Assembly (NCBI GenBank): GCA_016188915.1
Contig: JACPGU010000002.1
Location: forward strand, 85,287 to 149,286
Length of the DNA stretch: 64,000 nucleotides
Direction: 5' to 3'
Source: Candidatus Microgenomates bacterium
GTDB lineage: Bacteria > Patescibacteriota > JACPGU01
In this document: positions 14,928-64,000 of the stretch, piece after piece
Position numbering within the stretch: the stretch's first letter is position 1
Layout of the letters: each line of letters starts with the position of its first letter
Position numbers and translations under genes: made by a program
The notes under the pieces: generated by a model
What the model was told of the DNA's origin: nothing
Databases searched by the model: none
Seen by the model: the letters and a program-made list of their open reading frames with translations, nothing else

Positions 14928-15119
14928 TTAACAACATTTGCATTTTCTGTCTAGCAATTTACCCAGACCCCCTAAAATAACAATAGATGGCCAGACAATA
15001 GCCACCAATTCAGAAGCCAAAACTCCTAATGTCCCTAGTAAAAAAGTAAGGCCGAAAAGAATTACTAATATCGGTCCAAAGCTATGATGCACGCAATTGC
15101 AAGAGCAACATTTTTCCAT
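14928..15119 (-). CDS. 63-aa two-TM mini membrane protein with terminal cysteine clusters
   Basis: MEKCCSCNCVHH...two hydrophobic helices...DRKCKCC. Nine Cys and two His are concentrated at the two ends. Confidence 0.4.
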   Translation of the reverse strand: MEKCCSCNCVHHSFGPILVILFGLTFLLGTLGVLASELVAIVWPSIVILGGLGKLLDRKCKCC

Positions 15120-15167
15120 ATAGTCTCCTTTGTTTTACTAATAACACAATCGACCCTTTGTTATTTT

Positions 15168-15674: not shown

Positions 15675-15687
15675 TTTTTTTGAATTT

Positions 15688-16611: not shown

Positions 16612-16681
16612 TCTCGACTCTCTCTTGTAAATAGCACTCTTTTACGCTACAATATTTGAGATAATTCTTCAAAGAAAATAT

Positions 16682-16753
16682 TCCGCGGTAGCTCAATGGT
16701 GGAGCAATCGGCTGTTAACCGATCGGTTGCTGGTTCGAGTCCAGCCCGCGGAG
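16682..16753 (+). tRNA. tRNA-Asn (anticodon GTT)
   Basis: Hand-folded cloverleaf. Acceptor TCCGCGG/CCGCGGA, D-stem GCTC/GAGC, anticodon stem ATCGG/CCGAT with loop CTGTTAA, T-stem GCTGG/CCAGC with loop TTCGAGT, discriminator G. No CCA is encoded. Confidence 0.85.
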
Positions 16754-16764
16754 TTAATAACAAA

Positions 16765-16790
16765 AATAGACCATATGGTCTATTTTGTTT
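16765..16790. terminator. bidirectional rho-independent terminator
   Basis: Perfect 20-nt palindrome AATAGACCAT|ATGGTCTATT followed by TTTGTTT. It lies between the tRNA-Asn 3' end and the rpoD 3' end, which converge. Confidence 0.6.
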
Positions 16791-16809
16791 AATGCAATTT
16801 TTTGCGGTT

Positions 16810-17940
16810 TTATTTCAAATATTCTTTCAACATTTTGCTCTCGCGGTTGCGACGAAGCTTCAAAAGAGCTTTTGCTTCTATCTGACGGATACGCTCGCGC
16901 GTAACGCCAAACTCCCGCCCCACTTCTTCCAGGGTATGACTTTTACCGTCCTCTAAACCAAATCTCATATTGACGATTTTTTGTTCTCTCGGATATAAAG
17001 TTTTGATAACGCCTCGCAATTGTTCTCTTAAAAGCTGGTGGGTCGCCGCATCATCGGGAGACATGTTTTTGTCATCAGGAATAAAATCTGATAATTTGCT
17101 GTCCTCTTCTTCTCCCACGCTGGTTTCCAAAGAAATAGTACCCTGAGAGATTTTCAAAATATGCTGAACTTTTTCTACTTCCATACTCATTTCAGCGGCT
17201 ATTTCTTCTGGAGTAGGGTCGCGCTGCAACTCTTGCGAAAGTTGTCTCTGCACGCGCGTTAATTTGTTGATAGTCTCCACCATATGCACAGGAATCCTGA
17301 TAGTGCGTGCCTGATCAGCAATAGCGCGAGAAATAGCCTGTCTAATCCACCAGGTAGCATAAGTAGAAAATTTGTAGCCACGATGGTAGTCAAATTTGTC
17401 CACCGCCTTCATCAGTCCTAAATTCCCTTCCTGAATTAGATCTAAAAGTTGTAATCCTCTACCCATATGTTTTTTGGCAATAGAAACAACCAAACGCAGA
17501 TTCGCTTCAGCCAATCTCGCCTTGGCGCCTTCCTCGCTCTTTTCTATTTTTTTGGCTAAAATCACTTCTTCTTCCGATGTCAAAAGAGGAATTCTGCCAA
17601 TCTCCCGAAGGTACATTCTCACCGAATCATTAGAAATATCAGCCAAAGCCATTTCTTGTTGTTTGACTTGTTCGGAAGCATCATCTTCGACAACATCGGC
17701 TGATACTTCACTCTCTTCCGCATTCTCTTCTATGCCACCCTCAGCAACTTCTACTCCTTCTTCTAGCATCACTGAATAAATCTCGTCGAATTTTTCTAAA
17801 TCTTCTTCGGCAGCGGGAACAGCCGATAGAATGTCGGCCTGTGTCACAAATCCTTGGCTACGACCTTTTTCCAACAATTGCTCCAATTCTGGATCGGCCT
17901 TTATTTTACGTGACTCTTTGACGGGTTTTTTCTTAGGCAT
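16810..17940 (-). CDS. rpoD: RNA polymerase sigma-70 factor
   Basis: 376 aa. Region 2 reads [34 protein letters not shown] region 4 HTH is present. There is an acidic N-terminal region. Confidence 0.9.
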
Positions 17941-20629: not shown

Positions 20630-22240
20630 TTAGCAATTGGAGAGGTCGCATAGTGGCCTAGTGCGCCGCCTTGGAAAGGCGGTATATCCGCAAGGGTATC
20701 GGGAGTTCGAATCTCCCCCTCTCCGTTTATAGGGATAGATGTGCCTTTTCTGTATTATCAGGAAGGGTTTTTTTAGTATAATATCGAGTTTTTTGTTAGT
20801 CAAAGTGAAGTTCGAACCGATTGTTTTCAGGATTTGCTTTTTCGTCTCCATATTTCCAGTTTCAAACTTTATTTTGGTGTAATAAGAGAAATTAAACAGT
20901 TCCTCTACTAGTTCGAGCTGACAGTATTCTTTGTCCCTCCATTTGTTCTCTAGTGTTGTTATTTCTTGTTCTTCCTGTATTGTTTCTTTGGAGAATTTTT
21001 CACAATCCTCTGAAGTGAAAAATCCATTATCTTCCAATATCTGTCTTTTCAGATTATCCATTTTCTTTTTATTGCTTTGCCTGCGTTGCTGAAGACCTTT
21101 CAATATCTCGGTCTGAGTTTTTATCTCCTGATTGTTATGCTCTCTTGCATATTTCAAGACCCATTCCTTGAATTTATCAGAGATAGTTATACTATTTATG
21201 GTTTCTAGTAATTGCCTGTCGAGCTCTTTAGCTACTATGTATGGTTGGGAGCACTTTATCGCTTTGTTCTTTCTTGTGCAACGGTAGTAGGTGTAGTATG
21301 GGGTTTTAATGCGAGTTGCGTGGCGGTTCCTGTGTTCCTCTGCTGTTATCGAGCAACCACATTCGCCACATTGTATTAGGCCAGTGAAATCAAAGTCGTG
21401 CTTTTGTTTTCTTGGCTTACCCTTACTTCCTAGGGCATCCTGAATGTAATCAAACTCCTCTGGCGTTATCAGGGATATATGATGGCCTTGCTTAATGCTT
21501 CCTCTGTGCTTAATCATTCCGTAGTAGAACGGGTCGGTCAAAATCCTATAAAATGTGCTCCTAGACATTGGGCCACCACCCATTTTTTTAGTTCTTGGAG
21601 TTCGGTAGCCATACTCATTGTTTAGTGTTTCCAGAGCCTGTCTAACTTCGTATTTGTCATACAGGATTAGCTCTAACGACTTTCTTATTAGGTTAAATCT
21701 CTCAGGGTCGGGGATGGATTCACTCAATCCCTCTCCCCTAGAACCATCGTTAATATATCCTGCTGGTGCAGAGCCAGGCCTTAACCCTCTCTCGAACTTC
21801 TGCCTATACCCCCTCAGGATATCCTCACTTTTATTGTCGTTTTCTAACTTTGCCTGATTGCAAATCATACTAAAAAGAAATTTATCATTGGGGGTATTTT
21901 TGAATACTTGGTTTGGTGTTCTAATTTCAGCTATTTTACCCGAATCCATCAGGTATACCAACATCCCAGTGTCGACAGAATTTCTCGATAACCTGTTTGC
22001 ATTCCAAGTAAGAATACCGTTAGCTTTATTATGTTCGAATCCCTTAATCATATCATTGAACACTGGTCTGCCAGGCTTCTTGGCGGTGTGAGATTCCTGT
22101 AATGTATCGCAAATATGTAAACCAATCTTTTTTGACAATACACTTAACTCCGCTATTTGTGACTCAATAGAAGCAGCCTGCTTCTCTTCTTGCTCTGACG
22201 ATTTTCTTGCGTATAGAATATAATTTATTTTTTCTTCCAT
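20630..22240 (-). CDS. large serine recombinase (integrase), 3' end antisense to tRNA-Ser
   Basis: 536 aa. Resolvase-type catalytic N-terminus YILYARKSSEQEEKQAASIESQ. Central recombinase domain and a Cys-rich zinc-ribbon region (CGECGCS...YYRCTRKNKAIKCSQPY). The last roughly 30 codons lie entirely within the tRNA-Ser gene on the opposite strand. Confidence 0.85.
   Translation of the reverse strand: MEEKINYILYARKSSEQEEKQAASIESQIAELSVLSKKIGLHICDTLQESHTAKKPGRPVFNDMIKGFEHNKANGILTWNANRLSRNSVDTGMLVYLMDSGKIAEIRTPNQVFKNTPNDKFLFSMICNQAKLENDNKSEDILRGYRQKFERGLRPGSAPAGYINDGSRGEGLSESIPDPERFNLIRKSLELILYDKYEVRQALETLNNEYGYRTPRTKKMGGGPMSRSTFYRILTDPFYYGMIKHRGSIKQGHHISLITPEEFDYIQDALGSKGKPRKQKHDFDFTGLIQCGECGCSITAEEHRNRHATRIKTPYYTYYRCTRKNKAIKCSQPYIVAKELDRQLLETINSITISDKFKEWVLKYAREHNNQEIKTQTEILKGLQQRRQSNKKKMDNLKRQILEDNGFFTSEDCEKFSKETIQEEQEITTLENKWRDKEYCQLELVEELFNFSYYTKIKFETGNMETKKQILKTIGSNFTLTNKKLDIILKKPFLIIQKRHIYPYKRRGGDSNSRYPCGYTAFPRRRTRPLCDLSNC
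20639..20725 (+). tRNA. tRNA-Ser (anticodon GGA), class II with long variable arm
   Basis: Hand-folded. Acceptor GGAGAGG/CCTCTCC, D-stem GCAT/GTGC, anticodon stem CCGCC/GGCGG with loop TTGGAAA, 6-bp variable arm ATATCC-GCAA-GGGTAT, T-stem GGGAG/CTCCC with loop TTCGAAT, discriminator G. Confidence 0.85.
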
Positions 22241-26522: not shown

Positions 26523-28073
26523 CTATTTGCAGGGTTCGTGTAGGGTTCTACTGGGATATGCTTTCTGTACAGCTTCTAAACTCGGAAAAGATTGTAGATA
26601 TTTTGTAGAGAGATTCTTATAGGCCGAGTCTGTATCGCAATAATAAAGATATGCTGTGCCATAAGAGCTCGCATAATAAGTGTGTCCAGATGTGGTTTGC
26701 GGGGCAGGGACTGGAGTGGGCGTTACTGGTGCTGGCACAGGGCTAGTTGGTGCTGGTGTGGTGGTAGTTGGTGACGAACTTGTTGTATTGCCGCTACAGG
26801 TAGTCGAGCTCCATAATCCCTTCTGCCCACTTCTCGCTTGTTTCTCTGCTTCTTTGAACTCGGCTTGGTATTTATATGGGATATCGTATGTATATTCGTG
26901 AGCATACCCATCACCAATCATTTGCTTGTTAAAAAATGTGCCATTTTCAAGATAAACATAACGCAATAGCCGACCATATTTGTCCCTATCCCCTTGAGTC
27001 GCATCAGATTCAAGCTTAACTTTCTTCCCCGAAAGCAATGCCTTCGCTCTATTGGAAGCCTCAACACCAAAACACTGAACTGGTTTTCGAGGGTCAACAG
27101 TTTCAGGAGTATCTACACCTATTAGACGAATCGTTTCTGTCTTTCCGCTAACACTGGCCTTAAAAGTATCGCCATCCGTTACGGAAACAACGCCATAATA
27201 CTGTGTAGTGGTCTGGGTGGGCGTTGTCTGGTTGCTCTGGGTGTTTGAACCAGAAGATGACTGACTAGCGTCCGTTTTGTTGTCTTCCCCTGTTGTTTGG
27301 GATTCTTGATTTGCCTCCTCCTTCTTTGGTGGAGTATAGGTTATTTTTATATCCTTTCTGTCGCTTTGATTCCCTGCTTCATCTATAGCTATAAGATAAA
27401 AATTGTTCTCTCCTTCATTCAGGCTGACTGAATCAACGGTAATTTCTTCGCTGGATTCTCGTACCTCTTTAATTTTTTTGTTGTCTGAACCAAAAAGTTC
27501 TATTCTTGCGTTTTTCTCTGTTTTTCCTTTTATATCTGTCTTGTCTTTGTCGCTAGTAATCTCTGTATTTTCAAGTTCTATGTTTGGCTTTTGTGTATCA
27601 AGAATAATTTTTTTAGTAGCACTTTTATTTGTACTGCCATTACTGTCTGTTGTGCTTACATAAACTGTGTTTTCACCTTCATTGAGCGTAAACTCTCCAA
27701 AAATGAACTTTCCGTTGGAATCGGCAATCACTTCTTGGATTTCTTGATTATTTATCATAAGTTTCGCTTTTGTCCCGCTTTCAATATGGTAGCCAGAGAC
27801 AACAACCGCCTTTTGATTAGTCGGACTTTTTATTTCATCTAAAAAAGGTTGTCCTTTTGCCGACAAGGACATTATCAGAATCAAAAACACCACAACAACT
27901 ATGGTGGCAATGATTTTATAGACTCGTCCCCATTTGGTCTTCGCCCAAATAGTCCAGACAGCAATAAAGGGTAATAAGAGAATGATAACTGGTAGTAAAA
28001 CGATGATGGCTACAATGCCCCACCATTTTGCATACCATCCTCTTTTTTTGGTTTTTACTTCGGTGTTTTCCAT
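26523..28073 (-). CDS. membrane-anchored secreted thermonuclease (SNase-like) with Ig-like domains
   Basis: 516 aa. N-terminal TM helix, then two beta-sandwich-like regions, then an SNase core VSVTDGDTFKASVSGKTETIRLIGVDTPETVDP...RDKYGRLLRYVY. Ends in a Pro/Thr-rich linker and a Cys-containing C-terminus. Confidence 0.7.
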   Translation of the reverse strand: MENTEVKTKKRGWYAKWWGIVAIIVLLPVIILLLPFIAVWTIWAKTKWGRVYKIIATIVVVVFLILIMSLSAKGQPFLDEIKSPTNQKAVVVSGYHIESGTKAKLMINNQEIQEVIADSNGKFIFGEFTLNEGENTVYVSTTDSNGSTNKSATKKIILDTQKPNIELENTEITSDKDKTDIKGKTEKNARIELFGSDNKKIKEVRESSEEITVDSVSLNEGENNFYLIAIDEAGNQSDRKDIKITYTPPKKEEANQESQTTGEDNKTDASQSSSGSNTQSNQTTPTQTTTQYYGVVSVTDGDTFKASVSGKTETIRLIGVDTPETVDPRKPVQCFGVEASNRAKALLSGKKVKLESDATQGDRDKYGRLLRYVYLENGTFFNKQMIGDGYAHEYTYDIPYKYQAEFKEAEKQARSGQKGLWSSTTCSGNTTSSSPTTTTPAPTSPVPAPVTPTPVPAPQTTSGHTYYASSYGTAYLYYCDTDSAYKNLSTKYLQSFPSLEAVQKAYPSRTLHEPCK

Positions 28074-28297
28074 ATCGTTTGGTTATTTATAAACACAAAA
28101 AAGGTCACCTGAACTAGCGGTGTAACCTTGCGGACACACCCGCTATCCTTTCGGATAGTGACCTCAACGACGAAGTACCAGTCAGATGACCGTTCTTGTC
28201 GTTGAGGATTTCATAACCATACCTCAAATTACTTCGAGGGTTAGGTTAATACTCTAAATTGTAAATATACTCTATCATAAAAATCTACCAGAGTAAA

Positions 28298-43118: not shown

Positions 43119-43907
43119 CTACCAGCTTTTGCGTATTAACTCTTTGATTTTTTCTTCACTGGTCCGATAAACATTGTCCGAAAAATAGTAAGCGCCAGCG
43201 TAGGAAGAGAGCAAAATACCTAAAGCAACTACTAAATAGCCCAAAAAATATTGCGAGGAAAAAGAAACGACAAAACCATCGATTATAATAGCAAAGAAAA
43301 ATTTGACCGCAAAATATAGAAAGAAAGTTTTTTTGAATAGAGAGTGCCAGATTTTAAATGGCCAAACATTCAAAAGATAACGCAAGAAAAGATAGGAAAT
43401 AACCGCCCCCCAGATAAAACTCCATAAAACACTGGCGACTAAAGATCCCAGTCCAACATAAAGGATAAAGACATCAGGCAACGCTAAAGCGCCTAAAGCA
43501 CCAAAATTAATAGCTACCTTAGGATAAACTATTTGCCCGCCAAAATACTGAAAAACAAAAGTCAAAATAGTGACGATAGCAAAAGACAGCGCGCCATATT
43601 TGACAGCAGCCAGATAAAGCTCTCTCTCGCCCGGAGATACTTTGAGCAGTTTGAGCAGAGCGTATAAAACATCATCGGCTTTTTGACGATAGTTCCCTGA
43701 GCCACGCAAATGAGCACTAGGGGAAGAAAGGTCATCTGGCTGAATAACTATTTTTTTGTTTTTTTCATCGGCTTCTTCAATGAAAGCCAGCGCTTCTTCT
43801 ATCTCGGAGATAGCAATACCTTGCTTTAACAAGCCCTTTTTTAGCTTTTCGGTGCCATAATCATCTAGATTGTTTCTGATGTAGGCGATTAGTTCGCTGT
43901 CAGGCAT
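43119..43907 (-). CDS. hypothetical polytopic membrane protein
   Basis: 262 aa. A soluble 90-aa N-terminus is followed by about 5 TM helices. Confidence 0.45.
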   Translation of the reverse strand: MPDSELIAYIRNNLDDYGTEKLKKGLLKQGIAISEIEEALAFIEEADEKNKKIVIQPDDLSSPSAHLRGSGNYRQKADDVLYALLKLLKVSPGERELYLAAVKYGALSFAIVTILTFVFQYFGGQIVYPKVAINFGALGALALPDVFILYVGLGSLVASVLWSFIWGAVISYLFLRYLLNVWPFKIWHSLFKKTFFLYFAVKFFFAIIIDGFVVSFSSQYFLGYLVVALGILLSSYAGAYYFSDNVYRTSEEKIKELIRKSW

Positions 43908-51018: not shown

Positions 51019-51077
51019 AAGCTAACGGACAGGATTTGCTCTTTAACAGTCCGAATTCAAAAAGAAGGAAGGTCGCT

Positions 51078-51788
51078 ATGAAAAAAATGCTTTGGTTGTG
51101 TCGGCGCAATAAAGGAGAGGTTAGCTCTTCAATTATCATCCTGATGGTGATATTTTCGATTGTCGCGATTTTTTATTTCGCTACAAAATGGCAAAAGCAA
51201 GCAGAGTACACAGAGAGAAAAGAAAGGGCCGAAATGCTGGCCAGTCTCTCCGATGGTTCCATTCCGTCCGACATTCAAGAAAACAAGGTCCGGTTGAAAT
51301 CGTCGGATTATGGCTCCCAAGAATTCGCCGAAAGGTTGGTGGAAAAGAATCCCCACAAAGGCATCGTTGGTGGCACTCTTTACATGGAAGACGGGAACCG
51401 CTTTGTCAAAACCAATATTGACGAATCCATCACCGTTTTCAAAAATGTTCGGACAGGCACTCGCATCGCCTATATTCTCTACAATTACAAAGGCAATTTG
51501 GAGCCAGAGCGAATCATCCACTGCCCGAAATATAAACCTCGCCCCAATAATACAGGGTTTTATTCCGACCAGATCGACGAAGTCAGTGGCATTTATTCGC
51601 TCGGGATGCACTGGGGATGCAAAGCTATTGGCAGCGACGTCAGAATCGTCAAAGCCAAAGACGGAGAAGCATACACCGTCATCACAACCCCCGAACAGTT
51701 AAAGCCCGACACTTCTTACACCCTGGAGGTGCCAACGTTTGGCAGAATAGGCGTCCAGCGTCCATTGGTTCAATTTGCCAATCGCTAA
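51078..51788 (+). CDS. hypothetical secreted/membrane-anchored protein
   Basis: Preferred start at 51078 (MKKMLWLCRR... with an upstream AAGGAAGG), not the track start at 51036. An N-terminal TM or signal sequence is present. No motif. Confidence 0.45.
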   Translation: MKKMLWLCRRNKGEVSSSIIILMVIFSIVAIFYFATKWQKQAEYTERKERAEMLASLSDGSIPSDIQENKVRLKSSDYGSQEFAERLVEKNPHKGIVGGTLYMEDGNRFVKTNIDESITVFKNVRTGTRIAYILYNYKGNLEPERIIHCPKYKPRPNNTGFYSDQIDEVSGIYSLGMHWGCKAIGSDVRIVKAKDGEAYTVITTPEQLKPDTSYTLEVPTFGRIGVQRPLVQFANR

Positions 51789-51865: not shown

Positions 51866-52669
51866 TTACTTTTTTCTCCACAGCACCACTTGATTACGAC
51901 CATTGTTTTTTGCCCTGTATAGAGCTTCATCGGCACGGCCAATTAATTTTGGTATGAACATATCGGTGACAACAGTTTTGGCCAAATGCTGACCTTCTAC
52001 ATGAGCCACTCCGATACTAATCGTAAAGCTAATTTTTTTCTTACCAGTTCTATCAATGGCAAATTTTGTTTTGGCTACTATTTTGTTGATACGTTCGGCC
52101 GCGGTCATTGCCATGGCAGGTGTTGAATCGGGCAGAAGAATAGCAAATTCTTCACCGCCATAGCGAAAGACTGTGTCGGTACCACGCGCCTGTTTTTGAA
52201 GTAGACTGGCTAAATTCTTCAAAGCGATATCGCCGGCCAAGTGTCCGTATTTGTCGTTAATTTTTTTGAAATAGTCAATGTCAATCATCATCAAAGATAA
52301 AGTCATTGGCTCTTCCAAAAGTTTTTGAATCTGCAAATGTTTAGCACGCAAACGAGAAAGCTCTTTGGAGAGATTGTCTATAAAGGCACGACGGTTATAG
52401 ACCTGGGTCAACTCATCGGTCGTTGCCAAAGCTTCGTGCTCTTTGGCTCTCTCATCGGCCGAAACCGCCAAAACTCCCAGCCAAAACATCGCGTCTTTTT
52501 CTTTCAATTTTCCTTGATGAAAAAGAGTTAGAATGTCTTCCGGACGCATAGAAGAAAAATCTTCCGCCTTACGGCCAGAAAAAACTCTCGTTCCCAATTT
52601 CGTTGCCAACCCCTGCATACGACGAGAGGCCAAGAAAGATTTTTCAATTGTTTTGTTGGTGGTTTTCAT
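51866..52669 (-). CDS. diguanylate cyclase (GGDEF domain)
   Basis: 267 aa. Active-site VFRYGGEEFAILLPD and upstream LTQVYNRRAF. Confidence 0.8.
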   Translation of the reverse strand: MKTTNKTIEKSFLASRRMQGLATKLGTRVFSGRKAEDFSSMRPEDILTLFHQGKLKEKDAMFWLGVLAVSADERAKEHEALATTDELTQVYNRRAFIDNLSKELSRLRAKHLQIQKLLEEPMTLSLMMIDIDYFKKINDKYGHLAGDIALKNLASLLQKQARGTDTVFRYGGEEFAILLPDSTPAMAMTAAERINKIVAKTKFAIDRTGKKKISFTISIGVAHVEGQHLAKTVVTDMFIPKLIGRADEALYRAKNNGRNQVVLWRKK

Positions 52670-52914
52670 TTTGTTTTTGTTTGCTAAAAAAGAGGAGCCC
52701 TGGCCCCCCTTTATTTTTAGCTTGCCTCCATTATAGCACAGATATCGGCAATTGTCAATGGTTTTCTGATGTATCAGAACATATTTTTTCTGTTATAATA
52801 AAAATTGGCCAAATATAGCCATATTTAGCTATCTCTCTCTTTTATCTTTTCTAACCTATTATTATATGTTATGCTTTAATCAACACTATTTAATCATCAT
52901 CAAAAGGAGGGAAA

Positions 52915-54372
52915 ATGGAAAATCCTATTCAGCCGGAAAAGGAGCCGATGGTTCCGGTTGCGCCACCTATTTCACCGGAAATACCCCTGGCCCCCAAACC
53001 AATGGAAAGTTTTGCTCCGCCAACGGAAATCGCGCCGGAAGCGCCCACACCCAACATTCCACCTCCAGTAACAAAGGAAGCTTTCTCCCCTGGGCCAGAA
53101 AAACCGAAAAGGAAATTGGACAAAAAAATTCTTTTGATTTTAGGAGCTATTGTCGCTGGTATTATTTTGGTTTTGGCCATCTGGCTGGGAATAGCCTATT
53201 TCCGCGCCGCCACCGTAGAAATCAGTGTCAACGAAAATGGTTTTGATGTTCTGTTAGACCAGAGAAAAATAGCCACCAACGTAAACTCGCCGCACAAAAT
53301 AAAAGTAAAGCCGGGCAAACATACTATTGCTATCGTCAAAGAAGATTTTTTTTCCAGCAGTGAAAATGTGGAAGTGACTGGCACGGCCGGGAAAAAAACC
53401 TTGGTTTTTAGCCTATCGGCCAAGCAAACTATCGGAAAAATTTTGGACAAAGAAATATTTTTTCCCGCCTATGATAAAATTACCAACAGCCTGCTTTATT
53501 TTGACAAACAAGAAAGCGGCTATTTCATAAATAATTACAATCTGGATACGCAGACAGAGACTGTCCTCACAACCAAGCCGATAGCTAGTATAGAGAGTGT
53601 TTCTTGGTCGCCCACCTACAAACAATTAATCGTCAAGACAACTAATAGCCTCGCTCTGCAAAATGGGCTCTTAAACTATCTCCCAGAACATGGCGAAGGT
53701 ACCAAAATCAGCTGGCTAATCAATCTGGAAAGGGTTGATTTGGTTAATATTTCTGTTAAAAATTATCGTCCGAGCCTAGTCAATATCGCCTTTTCTCCAC
53801 AGGGAGACAAAATCGGCTATTTCTTCAAAAGCGCGGAAGAAAAAACTATCGCCAGCGCTGATTTGGACGGAAGCAATTTTGTCAGAATATTGATGTTGGC
53901 AACATTGGAATTTGAGCCAGCTATTTTGTGGTCTCCGGACGGACTAAATGTTGCTATTTTTAATCCCGACAGTCAATCGCCAGGAGATATTTTTCTTTTC
54001 AGTTTTGCCAGTCGCCTATCGACCAAAGTTACCAATGACGGCAAAGGAAATGAAGTTGGCTTTTCTCCGGACGGTAAAATGATTTTGTATAGATCAAACA
54101 ATCAATTGTGGTGGGCGGAAACAGCCGACTCAGACAAAACTCAAAGTCTGGGCACGGACGGTCATGTCAACACTAGCTCCTGGCTGGATAATGAAAGATT
54201 GGTAGTGGCCAATAACAATGAACTTTGGAAAGTAAAAATATCCGGCGAAAAAGAAGCATTAGATTACAAAAAATCTTCTCTGCCCGGCAATATAAAAAAT
54301 ATTCTGCTTGGTACCGGCATTCTGCTTCTAGTTAATGACCAGGGAGTTTTCAGCTTCTCTTTGACCGAATAG
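52915..54372 (+). CDS. TolB-like beta-propeller (PD40 repeat) protein with Pro-rich N-terminus and TM anchor
   Basis: 485 aa. Pro-rich 70 aa, then a TM helix, then repeated WSPDG/FSPDG blades (WSPDGLNVAIFNPD, FSPDGKMILYRSN). Confidence 0.5.
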   Translation: MENPIQPEKEPMVPVAPPISPEIPLAPKPMESFAPPTEIAPEAPTPNIPPPVTKEAFSPGPEKPKRKLDKKILLILGAIVAGIILVLAIWLGIAYFRAATVEISVNENGFDVLLDQRKIATNVNSPHKIKVKPGKHTIAIVKEDFFSSSENVEVTGTAGKKTLVFSLSAKQTIGKILDKEIFFPAYDKITNSLLYFDKQESGYFINNYNLDTQTETVLTTKPIASIESVSWSPTYKQLIVKTTNSLALQNGLLNYLPEHGEGTKISWLINLERVDLVNISVKNYRPSLVNIAFSPQGDKIGYFFKSAEEKTIASADLDGSNFVRILMLATLEFEPAILWSPDGLNVAIFNPDSQSPGDIFLFSFASRLSTKVTNDGKGNEVGFSPDGKMILYRSNNQLWWAETADSDKTQSLGTDGHVNTSSWLDNERLVVANNNELWKVKISGEKEALDYKKSSLPGNIKNILLGTGILLLVNDQGVFSFSLTE

Positions 54373-55581: not shown

Positions 55582-55589
55582 AACAAAAG

Positions 55590-55610
55590 GGGAAGGCCTA
55601 AAGCCTTCCC
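55590..55610. terminator. bidirectional rho-independent terminator
   Basis: GGGAAGGC-ctaaa-GCCTTCCC followed by TGCATTTTT, between converging genes. Confidence 0.6.
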
Positions 55611-55633
55611 TGCATTTTTCTCAAAAATTTGAT

Positions 55634-56662
55634 TTAATCATCAATAGTCTCTATGGCTTCTTCGTCGGAGACAACCTTCCAGCCCAATTGATTCAATACC
55701 ACCGAGGAAAGACTAAAGTATTCAGCCTCGCCTTCGGTTATCCAAGGAGGCTCTCCATCGGTTTCGGCAAGACAAAATGTTACAACATCCCACTGATCGC
55801 CAATTTTTTCCAAAAGGTAATGAATGATATGCGTTGGCTTCCCCTCCGAGGAAATTTCCGTCGCAGAAAAACTGAGAAAGTTATCCCCTTCCGCCCTGCC
55901 AGAGAAATTTAGATTTCTTTTCCCTCCTTCTTTTTGATAATACGCGAGGGTGGCCTCTTCGGGCAGAGATCGGCAAAATTCACAAATCTGTCCGCCCCTA
56001 TCGACCAATTCTTTCTCTAATAGCTCCAACAAATCGTCGGAAACGGCCCACCCGCCAAATTTACCGATGCCACTGTATAGTGGCTGAGTGCGATCGGAAG
56101 GATCTTTTATGTGAGCGGATATCCTGTATGCTCCGTCCAGCCTTTTGGCAAAGACATCCATATAGTAGGGCACCCACCAATTATCCCGAAAACGATCTTC
56201 GCTTTTGTAAAAAAGCAAGATTTCTTTTCCCCGATACTCCGGGAAAAGATCGTAGAAGATAAAAGCTCCTTCGTTGCCCAGATTGGCACCTAGAATGGTC
56301 TCGTTGTCACTTTCAATGTGCAAACGACAAATAATTTCTTCTGAGGGGGCTCTATTTGGTTGTGGAGCCAAAGAAAAAAATGCAGTGATTTTTTCCTTTT
56401 TTCCGTCATAGTCAATGTCGGCCTCAAAGCTTTTGTTCCAAAATCGTTTTTTCCAGATTTCCTTGGCTCCTTTGTTTCTGCCCATGTCTTGATAATGAGA
56501 GAACATATTCTCTCTGGCTTCTTCCCACAAAGGATATTGTTCTTTATAAATTTTTTCCCAAAGCTTGTCTTCGTTCAGCCCATTGATGGCGCCCAAACTG
56601 GGCGAACAGAAAAAAAACAATCCGGTAAAAAATACTGCAAAAACTGCCAACATTTTTTTCAT
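55634..56662 (-). CDS. hypothetical secreted protein
   Basis: 342 aa with an N-terminal signal peptide (MKKMLAVFAVFFTGLFFFCSPSLGA). No motif. Confidence 0.4.
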   Translation of the reverse strand: MKKMLAVFAVFFTGLFFFCSPSLGAINGLNEDKLWEKIYKEQYPLWEEARENMFSHYQDMGRNKGAKEIWKKRFWNKSFEADIDYDGKKEKITAFFSLAPQPNRAPSEEIICRLHIESDNETILGANLGNEGAFIFYDLFPEYRGKEILLFYKSEDRFRDNWWVPYYMDVFAKRLDGAYRISAHIKDPSDRTQPLYSGIGKFGGWAVSDDLLELLEKELVDRGGQICEFCRSLPEEATLAYYQKEGGKRNLNFSGRAEGDNFLSFSATEISSEGKPTHIIHYLLEKIGDQWDVVTFCLAETDGEPPWITEGEAEYFSLSSVVLNQLGWKVVSDEEAIETIDD

Positions 56663-56784: not shown

Positions 56785-57918
56785 ATGAGCAAAAAAAATA
56801 AGATCTTGCTAGCTATTATCATAGGCAGTTTCGCAATCGCTATTATTTTGGTTTACTTTTTCAGCAATAATAAAAAAAATATTCCGACCGACAATACTGA
56901 CCAAAATTCAGATAAACAAAGCACTCTTTCCGTAGAAAAAATAGCCGACCAAATAATGCTTTTCCCCGCGATTTCACCGGACGGAGAAAAGCTTTTTTAT
57001 TTTTCCGATGCCAATTCTCAATTTTTTTCTTTTAACTTAAAAACTAAAGAAAGTATTGCTCTCAGTGAAAGACTGGAGATTTTGCCGGAACAAATCTGGT
57101 GGTCGCCTCAACGAGACAAGGTGATTGTGCGATTCACCTACAACAAGGCAGTAGCTGAAAAATTTGAGGGTCCTTTTGCCGATTTGAATATGGCCGACAA
57201 CGATAATGCTGTTTGGCTATATGATCTACTCAATAAAAAAGCCAGTCGCTTGAGTAGTAATATAGAGAATATTGCCTGGTCGCCAGACGGTTCAAAAATT
57301 ATTTATCATTATGTGGATTTTGAAAATAATTTTGACAATATTGCCATCGCTAATCCAGACGGTTCCTCCTGGCGCAAATTAGCCGATGTTTCTTATCCTC
57401 TCGGAGCAAAATTGGGATTTATCTCCAGCGAAAAAGTATTTTATTATCAATATACCGGTAGCGAAAAGGAGGAAATCGCCCCCACTCAAAAAACAGAAAT
57501 CATGATAGCCGATATAGAGACTAACAAGACAGAAAAAATACTAGATGCCGAAAGTGCTACCGGCATTGTTTTTCCCAATAACAATAATTCTTTAGCAATC
57601 TACGAAAGAATCAAAGACGATAGTTTTTCACTTGGTATTTTTGATTTAGAAAAAAAAGAAGTAAAAGACTTGGATTTTTATGCCGATTTGGACAGAATAA
57701 CAATCTTAAACAGCAAATTAATCGCTATTTCGATTGATAATGAAAAAAATATTATTCATTCCATTGATCTAAAAACCGGAGCCAAAAATCAAATCATGAC
57801 CAATAAGCCACTGCCTCTTTCTGTTGACGATTGGCTATTTGACCAAGAGCAAGGTATCGTTTACTTTACATCTGGTTATTATCCTTATAGAATAAATCTA
57901 ACCAAAGACAACCTTTAG
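56785..57918 (+). CDS. TolB-like beta-propeller (PD40 repeat) protein, membrane anchored
   Basis: 377 aa. N-terminal TM helix. Blades with ISPDGEKLFYFSD, WSPQRDKVIV and WSPDGSKIIYHYV. Confidence 0.5.
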   Translation: MSKKNKILLAIIIGSFAIAIILVYFFSNNKKNIPTDNTDQNSDKQSTLSVEKIADQIMLFPAISPDGEKLFYFSDANSQFFSFNLKTKESIALSERLEILPEQIWWSPQRDKVIVRFTYNKAVAEKFEGPFADLNMADNDNAVWLYDLLNKKASRLSSNIENIAWSPDGSKIIYHYVDFENNFDNIAIANPDGSSWRKLADVSYPLGAKLGFISSEKVFYYQYTGSEKEEIAPTQKTEIMIADIETNKTEKILDAESATGIVFPNNNNSLAIYERIKDDSFSLGIFDLEKKEVKDLDFYADLDRITILNSKLIAISIDNEKNIIHSIDLKTGAKNQIMTNKPLPLSVDDWLFDQEQGIVYFTSGYYPYRINLTKDNL

Positions 57919-57928
57919 GTTTTAAGCT

Positions 57929-60900
57929 ATGGCCGATCTCTCAAACCAAAACAAAAATCCTAAAAATTCTACCGGTCCTGATATCAAGGGCTATGTTCAG
58001 GGTGCCAAATCAGCCGCCAGTATGACTCGTGGCCAAGAAGGCAAATCTAAAGAACAGATAAAAAAAGAGCGTGAAGAGGTTGGCGGAGCAACCCTAAAAG
58101 GCATCGCTGATTATAGTACTGGCGGAAAAGGGTCGAGCATCATTAGTAAATTTGAGAATGCTCCCCTGATCGGCCGTTTGATCAAAAAAAGAGAAGCTGA
58201 GCTAGGGAAAAAAATAGAAAAGCCCTTGGCCACTGCCGGCAAAGCTACCGGTTTGTCTAAAAAAAGTCGTGGCGCCACCTCTGTCGCCGAGCCAGAAGAA
58301 AACGAGGAAGAATCTTTTGATGAAGAAGGGAGTCTAGAAGAAGAGGAGGATTCTCGCGCCAATCAAGCCCGCCAAACGGCTGCTACCGCTGCTAAACAAA
58401 AAGCAAAGCAAGCCGCCATTCGCGCCACTATGCCCTATTGGGGTGCGGCTTGTGTTGTTTTGGTGATTTCTTTTTTGGTTTTTATGATTGTCTTGGGACT
58501 GATTAACGCCTTTGTTAATCATGGCTCTGCTGGTAAAACAAAAGGGCAATTGCTATCCAAGGGCGATCCTTCTGACGAAGCCCTCAAGGATCAAGTAATG
58601 GCTAACGCTGGTGAAGACGCTGCCCTGTCTCGTTCTATCGCTAGTCAAACAGAGTCTGCGTTGGCATCAGTACAGGGAATACTAGATGTCGCCAAAGAAA
58701 AAAATCTACCCGCCGTCCAAGAAGAAGCGCAAACTTTGCAAGCCGAAATATTGGCCTTGGGCACCGGGAATTCTTCCGCAGATAAAGCCAATATTGAAAG
58801 GCTCCAAAAAAGAGTCTCTATTCTACTAGGAGATAAAGAAGACTTCAAAGAAGCGTCTGAAAAAGTCAAAACCACCAACCCTGGACAAAATAAAGACGCG
58901 GTAGGTGATATGGAAAAATTAAGTCGCGTCCGAGAGGAGATGACCAAAAGCCCCGAAAGCAAACAAGGCCTGATTTTATTAAAAACTCAATTGCAAAAAT
59001 TAGAAACTATTGTCGCTACTACCGTTTCTTCCAAGTTGGTTATTTCGGAAAAAGATAAATATTATATTCGCTCCTATCAGGTAGACCGTCGCGTGTTAAA
59101 GGCTTTAAATTATTTGGTAACACCAATTAATCAGGGTGGCGCCGGATTTCGCAAAATAAAAGTGGGGCGGATTAAAAGCTCTTACGATTCGGAGGGGAGA
59201 AAGTTTTCTAAAGAATGGGATTTTACCACTAGCGAAGATCGCTCTGTTAGTCCACATTTTTCTGGTCAAGCTTTTGATGTGACGGCCATTGATTATGTGG
59301 ATAGAAGACTTTACAAAAAAGGCATTGTTAGAAAAAAAATCAAAAAGCTTCCCAGCAAAGATATTCTAGTAGCTCTCCAGTCTAACAAATCTGGTAAAGG
59401 CATTGGCAATTCCCTGACTAGTAGTGGCGAAACTTTTGGTTTGCTGGCCGAGGATGCCTCTACTTCAGTACTGCTTGCCCAAATCAGCGAGATGACCGGC
59501 TATAATCTAGAGGGGCTAGACGTTGGCAGCGGAAGCTTTGCTGACCTTACTAAAAATATTGGCTTGGCCATTTTGGCCGAAGAGCTAGGTTCTTCCATGG
59601 ACTCTGATCAAAGCAATGGTTCTTTTGAGGATTTGCTGAAAAATGTCGGGGCCGAAGCTATCGCCGACTGCCTGGATCTGCCAAAAAGTTCTTTTGATGT
59701 TTACGGAATAGAAAATTTGGCAGTCGGCGATAGCCAACTGGCAGCCCTGGATTTTGCCGGCAAACCAGCCGCCACACTAGAAGAAAATATCGGTCGCGCC
59801 CTAACCGAGCAAAGGCTCAATCTCGCTCCTGGCTCTTTGATTGGCGCAAGCTCTGAAGAAATATTAAAGAACCTAGGCAAAAGAAAATTGGAGAAAAATC
59901 TAGGGCTACCTAATCTTTCTCTGGAAAATATTTCTAATAATACCGACGTTGTCGCCCACATCGGCCAGATTGTCATTGAGCAAAGAATAAATCTACCAAA
60001 AAATAGTCTGAGTAGCAACAATCTACCTGATATAAAAAGTGCTCTTGGAGAAAAATTATTCCGTAACGCCTTTGCCATTAATCCGGCCTCTACTGATACT
60101 ATTTTGGGGCTAGATCCCAAGGGAACGAGATTGACTTTTGACTCCAACGACCCAGAGCTAGGAACATTAAAACAGATGAATGGAAAATACATTGTCGCGC
60201 CATCGCAAAAATTAGCGTCTGGACAATATTCTGTTCTTGATTACAAAAAAATGGTTGGGGCCAGCCTTCTTCAGACAAAAATCGGCTCTTTTGCCACATA
60301 CCCTATAGCCACAACAAAAATACTGCCTTTCTCCGGTATTATTATGGTCCCCTCTAGCTTGCTAGGCTCACAAAAAGACGAGGCGATGGACATGCCCGAT
60401 GGTAGTATCAAAAAAATATTGGAAGAAAAATCGAACATAGAGTCGGCACTGTCCGATATCGGTCTGGACGAAATAATCAAAAGGCTCACCGATAATAGCA
60501 ACGAGCGCGATGTTTTGTACCAATGGCATTCTCTCAACAAAAATCTGTCATCAGAAAAAAGAGTTGAGCTAGACACTATTGGTTTCCGTCCGACCATAAA
60601 TACTCCCTTAAAGAAAGCGTCTATTAGCGCCCTAGACGATTCTTCCTCTATCTCTTTGAACGCTGACAGTCTCGGCAATACTTTTAATCTTGTCAGTCGC
60701 TACGGGCCAACAGAAACAAAAATAAATGATAAAAAAAATCTTTCCAAGGCGGAGATATCTTCTCTGGACATAAAAATAGGAGAAAAATTGGCCAAAGACG
60801 AGCTGGAAAAATACAAAGATGACTATGAAAACGAAACGACTGATTCTTTCTTCGCCTATATCACCGAAAGCTATTTTGATGAGTCTCTAGCTCTGCCAGA

Positions 60901-63900
60901 TAATGCCCTGGAAGATATTTTACTAAATAACAAAGCAGGGGAGGTTTTTGCTCAAATAGGCAACAATAAAACCACTGTAATCAAAGAAACAAATGGTCTT
61001 TTGGGCAAAGGCGTGGGAGTAGATGCTCAGCTTGACAGTCTTTATCAAAAAAGAGCGCGACTAGAAGAAGATTTAGACTTTTTCAAATCAAATGCCGAAT
61101 CGGCAACAACAGATAAAGAAGAAAAAGAATATGAAAAAGAGGCCGATGCTTCTAAAAAAGAGCTGAATAAAATCAATAGCCAAATTCGTCTTTTAGAATA
61201 TGAAAAAGAAAGCCTCTACCAGGAGACACAAAAACAAGCCAAAGACAAGGTCTCTTGCTCTAAAAAATCCATCAGCTCTATCATTAATAATCAAGACACA
61301 GGTAGCCTAGTGGAAAGTATCGCCAAAATCGGCGCTTCTGTTTTGGAGTCCGATTTGGAATTACCGGCAGGCTCTCTGTCCGGCGCGCTGACCACTATCC
61401 AGGCCTTTGGCACTAAGCCAAAACCAGAAGAAGTCTCGGCTATCCAATTGCAATCCATTGGCATTCGTTATCTGGAAGATAGCCTGGGCTTCAAAAAAAG
61501 AGTCTTTAACGAACCAAATGTTTTGGGTGTAGTGATTTTGGCTGGCGGATATGATAAATTTTTTGCCAAACTTTTCCCTGGCAGATCGGGCAATGAAATG
61601 GCCAAAAAACTACCAGTAGAAAGTAATCCGGCCTATTTCAAAGCAGCCGGCGAAGATCTAGACAAAAGACTCGGGATTGGACGGGGCGCAAGCTATGATT
61701 TCTTGACCACAAAGATAAACACGGCTGAGTTTACTGCTATGGTTGGACGAGCCTATTTGGATAGCACTTCGTCGGATAGCCTAAACGGCACTGTTAACAC
61801 CACCAATTTTGGTTCTGTCATTAACTCAGACAATATTATCTCTCTTTTGGCCGGTAACGCCAAAGACATTGGACTAAAAATTGGCGCTACCTATGTAGAA
61901 AGCGGACTGGAATTACCACCAGGCACTGTCACCGGCATTATCCATGGCGCCGATAGCTCTTGCCAAGACTTCAATGTCTCTTTGGGTTGCATAGAAAATA
62001 TTTTGGCTGCCGCCGGCAAAGACAAATTAGCAGGTTTTATGGGTGTCTATGAAGATATCTCGGCCAGCGACAATAGCAAAGAAAAGATAGCCCAAAATAA
62101 AATTGAGAGCGCTCTTGGCGGATCTTTGCCGGCTGGCTGGTTTGAAGGAGAAAGTCTTTTGGATATCAAAAATAATGTTACTAAAAAACAAAATTTAGAC
62201 GCTCGCTATGTGGACCAACAAATATTACAGGCCTTCGGTTTTGATACTAAAAATCCGAATTTTAATTTAAATGTTTTACGGCAAATAGATTTTTTACAAA
62301 ATACGGATTACTACAATGTCGCCATTAATGTAGACCGCAAACTGGGATTGTCTGAGGGTACCTCCGCTAAATTATTCCGAGATAATATCTCGGTCACCAA
62401 TTATAAAAAGGAAGTTTATTCTAATTATGCCGATGGCCGCATAGACGAGTTGGGCAAAAATCTTTTAGGGGAAGACGCGCAAAAAATAATGGAAAAGTTT
62501 GATCTTCGTCCAAGCGAACTCAAGGATCTCTTGAAAAATCCCGACGACCTCAAAAATAGAGCCATATTTAATGCTATTCCAGCGCGCGAGATGAGCCTTC
62601 TTTTTGGGCTAGGGCTGGGAGACAAATTACCCATACCGATAGAAGGCGAATTCACTGCCAATTTCGCCCAAAAACAAGTAGAAGAAACCCTAGGACTTAG
62701 CAATGGTTCTTTCTCTCCCGATCGTCCCATTAGCGAAGTAGCCAAAATCAATGGAGCAAAAAATTTCGCTCGTGCTTTCAGGATCACTATACCATCCGAC
62801 AAAAAAACCGATGCCGAGGTCTTACAATTTCTAAATAGTGACGTTTTCTCGGGCGGTGCCTATTGGCAATTGCCCACCACCGAGTTTTTGACTGGCAATA
62901 TTGATGCCGCGCTCAAACTAGACAAAGCAGGGAGGATGACCCAAAAGCTTTTGTCTGGCTCTTTGTCTATCGCCAATTATCTTGAGAGCGTTCGCCAAAA
63001 TCAATTCAAAAAATTAGACACTGACGGCTTTTTGGGATTTTTGGCCAGTAATAATATAGAAGAATTGGGCAGTATCCCTACCTATATTGCCACTGCCAAA
63101 ACAGCTCTTGATTTAATAAAAAACCCCGATGCTCTAAAAACACCGGGCACACAACTTCAGATTCTTTCCGCTTTGAAAAATTCTGCTGGCATTGACTTGG
63201 ACGACAAATGGGGGCTTTCTCCTGGCACTCTAGAAAATTTCATTGCTAACCCCAAAGAGGGCCGCGGCATTTTGATTTCCGAGGGAATTCGCATGTTGGG
63301 CGAAGAACAATTCTTGGACGACCCGAAGGCCCAAATAGCTTTGTCTCTCGCCTATAATTACTTGATTCCGAATAAACCAGGAGCGGTCGGAGATGCCCTG
63401 GGCCGCCTAATCAGTGAGACCAATCCCAATCAAAACAGTTGTGGCGTTATCCCGACACAGACCATTCAAGAAGATTTCAGCTTAGGACAAACTAGTGTCT
63501 GCCAGTTTAGTCTGATGAATACTTTGCAAAACAGAATAAACAAACTCACAGACGAGATGGTCCCGGGAGACAATAATGGGGTAAAAGTGCCCATCAACGA
63601 TCTGACTAATATTATCAATGGCGACATGCGCTCTCTTTCTGTCATCGGCATCGCCTTTACCGTCAATTCTGTCAATGCCACAAAAGACCCCAACGGGGAA
63701 AGCACAGGAATTATCCCGGCTGGCTTTCAGGTTAGTTACGAAGAAATCAAGGGTGCTATTTGGGGAGACACGGGCAAGAGGCAGGATGTTTCTAAAAAAA
63801 CATCGAATGATTATTTCGCCAACAATGCCTTCCTCTTGGCTAGCAATCCCGAGGCCTACCAAAAAGGCCTGGACGAAGCCATTAACGAAGCGCAAGACAA

Positions 63901-64000
63901 AGTAATCCCAGATGCTAGGCGCGACCTGCAATTCAAATATGTTGACGCTCAGGTGGCTGCTCTTTCCAGTAAGCTGGTGGGCAATGAGGTTGTTCCGCCT
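57929..64000 (+). CDS. giant protein (at least 2024 aa, 3' end outside window), single N-proximal TM segment
   Basis: Hand translation from the ATG at 57929 found no stop through nt 64000 (2024 codons); an in-frame TAA at 57923-25 lies just upstream. The track lists only short antisense ORFs across these 6 kb. The ORF is missing from the track presumably because there is no stop within the window. It starts 11 nt after the TolB-like gene. One TM helix at about aa 165-195 (MPYWGAACVVLVISFLVFMIVLGLINAF). The rest is hydrophilic with coiled-coil-like stretches. Confidence 0.6.
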   Translation, partial: MADLSNQNKNPKNSTGPDIKGYVQGAKSAASMTRGQEGKSKEQIKKEREEVGGATLKGIADYSTGGKGSSIISKFENAPLIGRLIKKREAELGKKIEKPLATAGKATGLSKKSRGATSVAEPEENEEESFDEEGSLEEEEDSRANQARQTAATAAKQKAKQAAIRATMPYWGAACVVLVISFLVFMIVLGLINAFVNHGSAGKTKGQLLSKGDPSDEALKDQVMANAGEDAALSRSIASQTESALASVQGILDVAKEKNLPAVQEEAQTLQAEILALGTGNSSADKANIERLQKRVSILLGDKEDFKEASEKVKTTNPGQNKDAVGDMEKLSRVREEMTKSPESKQGLILLKTQLQKLETIVATTVSSKLVISEKDKYYIRSYQVDRRVLKALNYLVTPINQGGAGFRKIKVGRIKSSYDSEGRKFSKEWDFTTSEDRSVSPHFSGQAFDVTAIDYVDRRLYKKGIVRKKIKKLPSKDILVALQSNKSGKGIGNSLTSSGETFGLLAEDASTSVLLAQISEMTGYNLEGLDVGSGSFADLTKNIGLAILAEELGSSMDSDQSNGSFEDLLKNVGAEAIADCLDLPKSSFDVYGIENLAVGDSQLAALDFAGKPAATLEENIGRALTEQRLNLAPGSLIGASSEEILKNLGKRKLEKNLGLPNLSLENISNNTDVVAHIGQIVIEQRINLPKNSLSSNNLPDIKSALGEKLFRNAFAINPASTDTILGLDPKGTRLTFDSNDPELGTLKQMNGKYIVAPSQKLASGQYSVLDYKKMVGASLLQTKIGSFATYPIATTKILPFSGIIMVPSSLLGSQKDEAMDMPDGSIKKILEEKSNIESALSDIGLDEIIKRLTDNSNERDVLYQWHSLNKNLSSEKRVELDTIGFRPTINTPLKKASISALDDSSSISLNADSLGNTFNLVSRYGPTETKINDKKNLSKAEISSLDIKIGEKLAKDELEKYKDDYENETTDSFFAYITESYFDESLALPDNALEDILLNNKAGEVFAQIGNNKTTVIKETNGLLGKGVGVDAQLDSLYQKRARLEEDLDFFKSNAESATTDKEEKEYEKEADASKKELNKINSQIRLLEYEKESLYQETQKQAKDKVSCSKKSISSIINNQDTGSLVESIAKIGASVLESDLELPAGSLSGALTTIQAFGTKPKPEEVSAIQLQSIGIRYLEDSLGFKKRVFNEPNVLGVVILAGGYDKFFAKLFPGRSGNEMAKKLPVESNPAYFKAAGEDLDKRLGIGRGASYDFLTTKINTAEFTAMVGRAYLDSTSSDSLNGTVNTTNFGSVINSDNIISLLAGNAKDIGLKIGATYVESGLELPPGTVTGIIHGADSSCQDFNVSLGCIENILAAAGKDKLAGFMGVYEDISASDNSKEKIAQNKIESALGGSLPAGWFEGESLLDIKNNVTKKQNLDARYVDQQILQAFGFDTKNPNFNLNVLRQIDFLQNTDYYNVAINVDRKLGLSEGTSAKLFRDNISVTNYKKEVYSNYADGRIDELGKNLLGEDAQKIMEKFDLRPSELKDLLKNPDDLKNRAIFNAIPAREMSLLFGLGLGDKLPIPIEGEFTANFAQKQVEETLGLSNGSFSPDRPISEVAKINGAKNFARAFRITIPSDKKTDAEVLQFLNSDVFSGGAYWQLPTTEFLTGNIDAALKLDKAGRMTQKLLSGSLSIANYLESVRQNQFKKLDTDGFLGFLASNNIEELGSIPTYIATAKTALDLIKNPDALKTPGTQLQILSALKNSAGIDLDDKWGLSPGTLENFIANPKEGRGILISEGIRMLGEEQFLDDPKAQIALSLAYNYLIPNKPGAVGDALGRLISETNPNQNSCGVIPTQTIQEDFSLGQTSVCQFSLMNTLQNRINKLTDEMVPGDNNGVKVPINDLTNIINGDMRSLSVIGIAFTVNSVNATKDPNGESTGIIPAGFQVSYEEIKGAIWGDTGKRQDVSKKTSNDYFANNAFLLASNPEAYQKGLDEAINEAQDKVIPDARRDLQFKYVDAQVAALSSKLVGNEVVPP

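Follow-up and report, generated by a model that had tools for sequence, protein, structure and literature searches.

The window that we analysed is a stretch of 64,000 nucleotides from a contig of a Candidatus Microgenomates bacterium (JACPGU010000002.1, positions 85,287 to 149,286). It holds a type IV secretion system (T4SS) core of the Gram-positive type on its minus strand and, 7-14 kb from this core, the start of a giant gene on the plus strand that has the core on its upstream side and runs off the end of the window. Translation of positions 57929-64000 (+) in frame 1 gave 2,024 codons and zero stops, as the initial annotation had read them; retranslation revealed no misread in-frame stop, and the region remained one frame rather than splitting into ordinary open reading frames (ORFs). 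At the base composition of this segment the probability of a stop is 0.0596 per codon, which corresponds to about one expected stop every 17 codons and to a chance of about 1e-54 for a stop-free run of 2,024 codons. The giant gene was missing from the ORF list because that list omits frames that continue past the end of the source. The ORFs that are listed inside the gene had been described as short and antisense; this is right for five of them (83-163 aa), and a further one is on the same strand and out of frame (63618-63905, 95 aa).

The 377-aa protein encoded immediately upstream was looked up by its exact sequence, and this led to two public Logan contigs carrying the locus, SRR12113422_89146 and SRR12113420_20616. 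The first was identical to the window at 6,072 of the 6,072 overlapping bases. Extension past the window, which had been suggested as a check, located the true end on this identical contig: the full gene has 2,360 codons (L001:11145-18227), its end lies 1,011 nt beyond the window (last 336 codons and stop at L001:17217-18227), and the stop stands 8 nt before a convergent dciA-dnaN-dnaA block. The protein is recorded at NCBI as MBI2448272.1, 'hypothetical protein HYV44_01790 [Candidatus Microgenomates bacterium]'. Homologues that likewise start with MA[DE] back the choice of the ATG at 57929, as does the position of the upstream gene's stop, 57918. The single stop-free frame, the identical public contig and the end-to-end alignment of homologues rule out both an artefact and a set of several ordinary ORFs, and the frame is a genuine gene for a 2,360-residue protein of an ultrasmall bacterium, Candidatus Microgenomates, within the candidate phyla radiation (CPR, or Patescibacteria).

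The whole giant protein had no match in Pfam, NCBIfam or PHROGs, and PDB sequence searches with a profile of the whole family and with a profile of its C-terminal domain returned nothing meaningful. When 1.84 billion representatives were searched exhaustively with a profile, relatives appeared in 253 clusters at E<=1e-3 and in 152 at E<=1e-30, and the complete relatives among the 150 matches listed were 1,288-3,106 aa long. Six relatives looked up by name were all unnamed or called 'hypothetical protein'. The six matches to species-representative genomes all fell in CPR-type or unclassified metagenome-assembled genomes (labelled 'Patescibacteria group' twice, Saccharibacteria once and 'bacterium' three times). 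The family spans relatives including Microgenomates and Saccharibacteria genomes; a search of viral contigs (IMG/VR) found no relatives. Word-index searches with the whole protein, with an alignment of 55 members and with an alignment of the N-terminal domain returned just 3, 3 and 1 proteins, respectively. In a 90%-identity clustering the 2,360-aa MBI2448272.1 is filed under a 47-aa fragment as its representative, which hides it from searches of representatives only. The giant protein family is unannotated and lineage-specific. Conservation was counted over 55 full-length members, which share 19-38% identity with the giant protein: D386, H443, Q484 and H2357 are invariant, and R388, E429, S441, D450 and D455 are each present in at least 90% of members.

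The features of the protein that fall inside the window, and those of its neighbours, are collected in Table 1. The charged tail that precedes the transmembrane (TM) helix is confined to the sub-clade of the giant protein (alignment occupancy about 0.08). One TM helix about 165 aa from the N-terminus, followed by a long hydrophilic remainder, had been proposed in the initial annotation, and both hold: the helix lies at aa 172-195, and the rest of the protein is large and mostly hydrophilic. The members P0152, P0058 and P0147, whose N-termini were read, open with a Sec-type signal peptide. Beyond the window, an uncharged hydrophobic segment (aa ~2183-2240) is followed by a conserved C-terminal domain (aa 2241-2360) ending in G-[LVI]-[WF]-x8-[D/A]-x-x-H-[IV]-G-[FYW] in 121 of 121 complete sequences; a short GG-hydrophobic tail sometimes trails this consensus. 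Positive-inside and Cys-count statistics on the topology of the C-terminal domain were weak or irregular.

Table 1. Positions in the window of the giant gene, its parts and its neighbours.
Feature	Position	Strand	Basis
Giant gene, first 2,024 of 2,360 codons (MBI2448272.1)	57929..64000	+	translation, public contig
N-terminal tail, aa 1-165, Lys/Glu/Ala/Gly-rich, predicted cytoplasmic	57929..58423	+	family alignment
TM helix or signal-anchor, aa 172-195	58442..58513	+	Kyte-Doolittle peak 3.17; Lys/Arg precede
Linker, aa 196-367, moderately conserved	58514..59029	+	helical/coiled-coil look by eye only
LAS (Hedgehog/DD-peptidase fold)-like domain, aa 368-492, where conservation in the family peaks	59030..59404	+	profiles, alignment
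SPHFSGQAFD, LAS zinc motif SxHxxGxAxD, aa 441-450	59249..59278	+	alignment
Codon of invariant Gln484, 34 residues past Asp450	59378..59380	+	alignment
All-alpha-helical repeat body, aa 493-2024 in the window, continuing to ~aa 2180	59405..64000	+	repeats, homologue model
Repeat module, aa 673-779	59945..60265	+	hhalign
Repeat module, aa 1574-1691	62648..63001	+	hhalign
Charged heptad-like stretch, ~aa 1030-1120	61016..61288	+	sequence; coiled-coil look by eye only
VirB4-type ATPase, 692 aa	43977..46055	-	
TraC-N/TrsD-like protein, 242 aa	46070..46798	-	
PrgI (VirB3-like) protein, 208 aa	46852..47478	-	
Polytopic TrbL/VirB6-like protein, 1,123 aa	47506..50877	-	
GGDEF diguanylate cyclase	51866..52669	-	
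PEGA + beta-propeller protein, 485 aa, kept in all related loci with upstream DNA	52915..54372	+	
SLT lytic transglycosylase, VirB1-like hydrolase, 395 aa	54394..55581	+	
Bidirectional terminator	55589..55611		
342-aa ORF without family match	55634..56662	-	
PD40 beta-propeller gene, 377 aa	56785..57918	+	
Promoter-like site TTTACA-17-TAGAAT, within the propeller gene's 3' end, 36 nt upstream of the ATG	57865..57893	+	consensus match only

The initial annotation could name no motif in the protein and missed the domain at aa 368-492, in which SPHFSGQAFD is the zinc motif SxHxxGxAxD of LAS peptidases. Among known systems, this domain comes close to the LAS zinc peptidases, such as MepA, VanX, VanXY, the Streptomyces albus DD-peptidase, the phage L-Ala-D-Glu peptidases (T5, RB49, Ply500, LysB4) and the N-terminal domain of Sonic hedgehog (Shh). 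In the H-x6-D motif, H443 was found in 55, D450 in 54 and S441 in 52 of the 55 aligned members, and the strict form of SxHxxGxAxD was present in 111 of 153 family sequences. The sole PDB match of the N-terminal domain profile in HMMER was Sonic hedgehog, exactly on its zinc motif, with an E-value of about 1.4. The best scores of domain fragments against Pfam were all below threshold (VanY, 15 bits for a cut-off of 25; M15_4, 13.2 for 25; M15_3, 12.8 for 23.2); further weak matches of single sequences were to Extensin-like_C and HH_signal, and a few unrelated Pfam families scored at levels like those of the LAS families. The assignment of aa 368-492 to the Hedgehog/DD-peptidase fold is reasonably secure, while membership in any curated LAS family is not established because every Pfam score is below its threshold. 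The domain differs from LAS zinc peptidases (Peptidase_M15, VanY, Hedgehog) not only in these scores; LAS peptidases are small enzymes, whereas here the domain is embedded in a giant protein, and an invariant Gln replaces the expected third His. LAS enzymes have this His in an HxH or [D/E]xxH motif about 35-60 residues past the Asp, but no conserved His follows D450 inside the domain, and Gln484 is at about the spacing of the third zinc-ligand His in Shh and in the S. albus enzyme.

A Gln at this position, together with the lack of a Glu/His-x-x-His motif inside the domain, could mean that the domain is a dead enzyme, a purely structural wall-binding anchor or spacer of the T4SS in which the His/Asp motif binds a peptide stem and does not cut it, as in Hedgehog. 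The PDB sequence matches are indeed to Hedgehog, and separate active-looking hydrolases (SLT, M15_4, M23, C39-like or CHAP) are always encoded alongside. However, the invariance of H443 and the near invariance of D450, S441, E429 and R388 across clusters with only about 20-36% identity to the giant protein form the pattern expected of an active site, and the missing ligand could be supplied by an invariant His near the C-terminus; we regard a dead enzyme as quite improbable.

This His, His2357, is four residues from the C-terminus and about 1,900 residues from the LAS-like domain, and it is the only other invariant His of the family. It stands in a [D/E/A]xxH[IV]G[FYW] motif that resembles DPMHFQY of a genuine M15_4 protein encoded in one of the related loci (L005), and the likeness of its [D/E]xxH-hydrophobic-x-aromatic form to that of M15 enzymes is suggestive of a split peptidase domain. 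The half with His443 and Asp450 would then be at the N-terminal anchor and the third ligand in the extreme C-terminal helix and beta-hairpin, and the active site would form only when both ends of the giant helical body meet, in the manner of the SMC/Rad50 ATPase head, the two halves of which are joined across a long coiled coil. Mini-chimeras searched against Pfam and aligned by hhalign with the genuine M15_4 domain matched through the N-terminal motif only, and the C-terminal part added nothing. In a mutual-information analysis, V481-V2356 ranked first among the pairs that connect the N- and C-terminal domains, but the covariation is uninformative because the columns involved are clade markers and phylogeny confounds it. 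No short 'Rosetta stone' protein with the two domains adjacent was present among the 150 matches listed or in six metagenome loci. The resemblance of the His2357 motif falls short of proof because the models are those of two different proteins, HMMER and hhalign are blind in the C-terminal part, the covariation is confounded and the topology statistics of the C-terminal domain are weak. We hold the split site to be a tentative and somewhat doubtful reading; if it were true, the giant protein would be a wall hydrolase that is gated by assembly or by tension and forms part of a secretion machine, an unusual mode of regulation.

Between the conserved ends lies a body of helical repeats. A motif of about 30 aa, G..x.E..L.LP.GS, recurs at least 16 times in it, and modules of about 100 aa at aa 673-779, 1172-1272 and 1574-1691 are internally homologous; profile-profile comparison of family alignment windows by hhalign gave a probability of 99.3% and an E-value of 2e-20 for the first and the last of these. 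In the AlphaFold model of a contiguous 1,189-residue piece of P0152, the shortest complete homologue, the region between the conserved ends contained 69% helix and 0.2% strand, with many short helices. The body is a new helical repeat, and the Ig-like or beta-helix repeats for which a check had been proposed were not found.

We then compared 11 distinct loci, the window included, in which ORFs were labelled by BLAST against reference neighbours and several labels were checked by Pfam. All of the loci with upstream DNA carry T4SS core genes and a propeller gene upstream of the giant gene, and in nine of the 11 VirB4 is encoded on the same strand as the giant gene. The usual order is PrgI, TrsD, VirB4, one to three wall hydrolases (SLT, M15_4, M23, C39-like or CHAP), the propeller protein, a protein of about 500 aa and the giant protein; in the window and in L011 the core is inverted, with VirB6-PrgI divergent. 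A convergent (RecF)-DnaN-DnaA block follows just downstream of the giant gene in eight of the 11 loci. In each related locus that we examined, the giant gene belongs to the Patescibacteria T4SS gene cluster and has a fixed place at its end, and its location next to secretion machinery, which had been pointed out from the window, is a stronger result than was stated, since the same position in the T4SS cluster recurs in 11 of 11 distinct loci. These loci agree with the published picture of Patescibacteria T4SSs, which are MPF-FATA-like, near dnaA and mostly devoid of a relaxase, and in the clusters of which a PrgB-type adhesin is absent and homologues of VirB1 and VirB8 frequently escape detection (PMC12102498). 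The giant gene is not mentioned, and unannotated neighbours are left unassigned, in PMC12102498, PMC10633639, PMC12857230 and PMC11665869.

A published counterpart by position is SEML1_0007 of Southlakia epibionticum ML1, an essential T4SS-cluster protein of 1,113 aa with a C-terminal Hedgehog/DD-peptidase domain. In its cluster it takes the place of the giant gene: virB4 lies to one side and the PEGA protein to the other, and recF-dnaN-dnaA is adjacent (PMC10633639). Its peptidase domain is of the same fold class as that of the giant protein, but it is complete and C-terminal (residues 951-1105), and SEML1_0007 is half the size of the giant protein or less.

Two genes found beside the giant gene in single loci could encode partners of the giant protein. 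In L009, a T4SS pilin gene (13854-14354, +), plus dciA, directly follows the giant gene, and in L007, from Saccharibacteria, a 1,077-aa Laminin_G_3 lectin-like protein (14627-17860, +) occupies this place. A protein of about 450-500 aa recurs right before the giant gene, overlapping or abutting its start, at 7854-9368 in L005, 3678-5039 in L004, 4668-6185 in L007 and ~4003-5535 in L013, the copy in L007 having a weak sub-threshold match to M23 peptidases. The window is without this protein and has a second propeller gene in its place.

The conserved position in the cluster, the predicted anchor, the LAS-like domain and the helical body make the giant protein a candidate for an undescribed part of the Patescibacteria T4SS. 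With moderate confidence, we favour its interpretation as a lineage-specific, membrane-anchored T4SS component that processes or spans the wall by means of a LAS-like domain and a helical scaffold. The N-terminal TM helix would insert the protein so that the 165-aa tail faces the cytoplasm, with the LAS-like domain and the body on the outer side. Just outside the membrane, the zinc-peptidase-like domain (VanX/VanY/MepA/Hedgehog fold) might hold, bind or cut peptidoglycan peptide stems, either of the cell's own wall or of the host wall where the two cells touch. A long rod or scaffold, formed by about 1,700 residues of helical modules of about 100 aa, could run through the wall and the surface layers next to the T4SS channel and pilus, and the C-terminal hydrophobic segment and conserved 120-aa domain may tie the far end back to the membrane or the machine. 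The protein would act with the neighbouring hydrolases, here SLT, and with the PEGA-propeller protein.

Such a role would be akin to that of the membrane-anchored VirB1-type wall hydrolases and scaffolds of Gram-positive T4SSs. The genes of PrgK (pCF10), TraG (pIP501), CwlT (ICEBs1) and TcpG (pCW3), like the giant gene, belong to VirB4/PrgI/VirB6-type clusters of the MPF-FATA kind; the giant protein shares with them a predicted N-terminal anchor followed by an extracytoplasmic domain of a peptidoglycan-hydrolase type, and, as would the giant protein, they presumably serve to open the wall around the channel or to organise it there. However, VirB1-like hydrolases have an SLT, lysozyme, CHAP or NlpC/P60 fold and the giant protein has a LAS-like one; scans with Pfam and NCBIfam found no lytic transglycosylase, lysozyme, CHAP or NlpC/P60 domain in it, SLT being on the separate 395-aa protein. 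Its helical modules add ~1,700 residues, a second hydrophobic segment and a conserved C-terminal domain further set it apart, and it is several times larger than PrgK, TraG, CwlT and TcpG. The giant protein is not a member of the VirB1-type hydrolase families.

The initial annotation had proposed an adhesin or host-contact factor. On this reading the protein would be a giant surface fibre whose helical body extends from the epibiont, binds the host surface and stands in for the PrgB-type adhesins of Gram-positive T4SSs. Prediction places most of the protein outside the cytoplasm, its sequence diverges fast (relatives have about 20-36% identity to the giant protein) and the body varies widely in length among complete relatives; moreover, PrgB-like adhesins are undetected in Patescibacteria T4SS clusters (PMC12102498) and a lectin-like protein is encoded directly downstream in L007. 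Nevertheless, no specific support for this proposal was found: an LPXTG sorting signal was present in 0 of 153 members, no Ig-like, beta-helix, lectin or Pfam adhesin domains were detected, and the body is predominantly helical in the homologue model. Conservation is strongest in the peptidase-like domain next to the membrane and at the C-terminal end rather than in a distal tip, and both ends appear tethered, which fits a scaffold better than a free fibre. An adhesin is unlikely in our view, although it overlaps the wall-spanning scaffold that we favour rather than excluding it.

A secretion substrate had also been suggested, and a peptidoglycan-degrading antibacterial effector delivered by the T4SS, like the wall-hydrolase effectors of the bacteria-killing T4SSs of the Xanthomonas type, would be one form of it. 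The N-termini argue for Sec export instead, through a signal-anchor TM helix in the giant protein and Sec-type signal peptides in P0152, P0058 and P0147. There is one copy at a fixed place per cluster, no coupling protein is encoded nearby, no small immunity-like gene recurs beside the giant gene in the 11 loci, and conservation extends over the whole length, including the second hydrophobic segment and both ends. These observations disfavour a substrate, and we consider an effector very unlikely.

Two other classes of giant proteins were considered and rejected. Phage tape-measure and T5 Pb2-type tail proteins are, like the giant protein, very long and almost all-helical, and they carry hydrophobic segments and an embedded wall-hydrolase domain. 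Tape-measure proteins topped the list in a Foldseek search of viral models (BFVD), yet the best match had an E-value of 2.6e-3, a probability of 0.28 and a TM-score of 0.08. The absence of significant Foldseek similarity, of PHROG matches and of relatives on viral contigs, together with the T4SS/dnaA context, argues against this identity and leaves an analogy only. The extended VirB6 proteins of Rickettsiales (up to ~4,300 aa) are also giant, are encoded in T4SS loci and have large hydrophilic extensions of unknown role (PMC7648143, PMC12857230). Their core has at least five TM helices, whereas the giant protein has just two hydrophobic segments, one near the N-terminus (aa 172-195) and one towards the C-terminus (about aa 2211-2240), and the window encodes a VirB6-like protein of 1,123 aa separately; this identity was rejected as well.

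The T4SS of Patescibacteria, in Southlakia epibionticum, is the first T4SS that has been shown to be essential for its bearer, and its role has been called completely unknown (PMC10633639, PMC11665869, PMC12857230). The giant family provides a concrete candidate for a wall-crossing or host-contact part of this system, and it offers candidate catalytic residues that can be tested (H443, D450 and H2357).

The gene immediately upstream of the giant gene had been called TolB-like. It scored 25 bits against the TolB equivalog TIGR02800, the cut-off of which is 343, and only PD40 repeats matched (32.8 bits); no search for a Tol-Pal context was made, and Patescibacteria are described as monoderm (PMC12857230). 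The TolB label was rejected: the gene encodes a PD40 beta-propeller and is paralogous to the PEGA-propeller gene that is conserved in these T4SS clusters. Co-transcription of this gene with the giant gene, another proposal of the initial annotation, is plausible from the 10-nt gap and from the failure to find a terminator-like site between the two genes, although the promoter-like site at the end of the propeller gene could point the other way.

Farther upstream, the VirB4 function is distributed over two genes of the window, the 242-aa TraC-N/TrsD-like protein and then the 692-aa ATPase, which is reported as typical of Patescibacteria clusters. The GGDEF cyclase, whose gene separates the divergent T4SS core from the accessory and giant genes, could connect the T4SS locus with cyclic-di-GMP signalling. 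In front of this gene lies a sigma-70-like promoter (52730-52758, -) that matches perfectly (12/12) and has an extended -10. Three ORFs of the T4SS region had no family match, those at 55634-56662 (-, 342 aa), 51036-51788 (+, 250 aa) and 43119-43907 (-, 262 aa), and for the 250-aa ORF a weak YajC-like match (E 0.016) was all that was obtained.

Elsewhere in the window, ten consecutive genes of about 370-470 aa each occupy a stretch of lower GC content (0.33-0.36) at 700-11917 (-). There are two tRNA genes, at 16682-16753 (+) and 20639-20725 (+), the second of which overlaps the 3' end of the ORF at 20630-22240 (-), so that the true ORF may be shorter. A LOOT RNA (Rfam RF03000) was found at 28119-28247 (-), with 74 bits for a gathering score of 46, just downstream of a 516-aa gene (26523-28073, -) whose product, with a staphylococcal-nuclease domain and a bacterial Ig-like one, may be a secreted nuclease.

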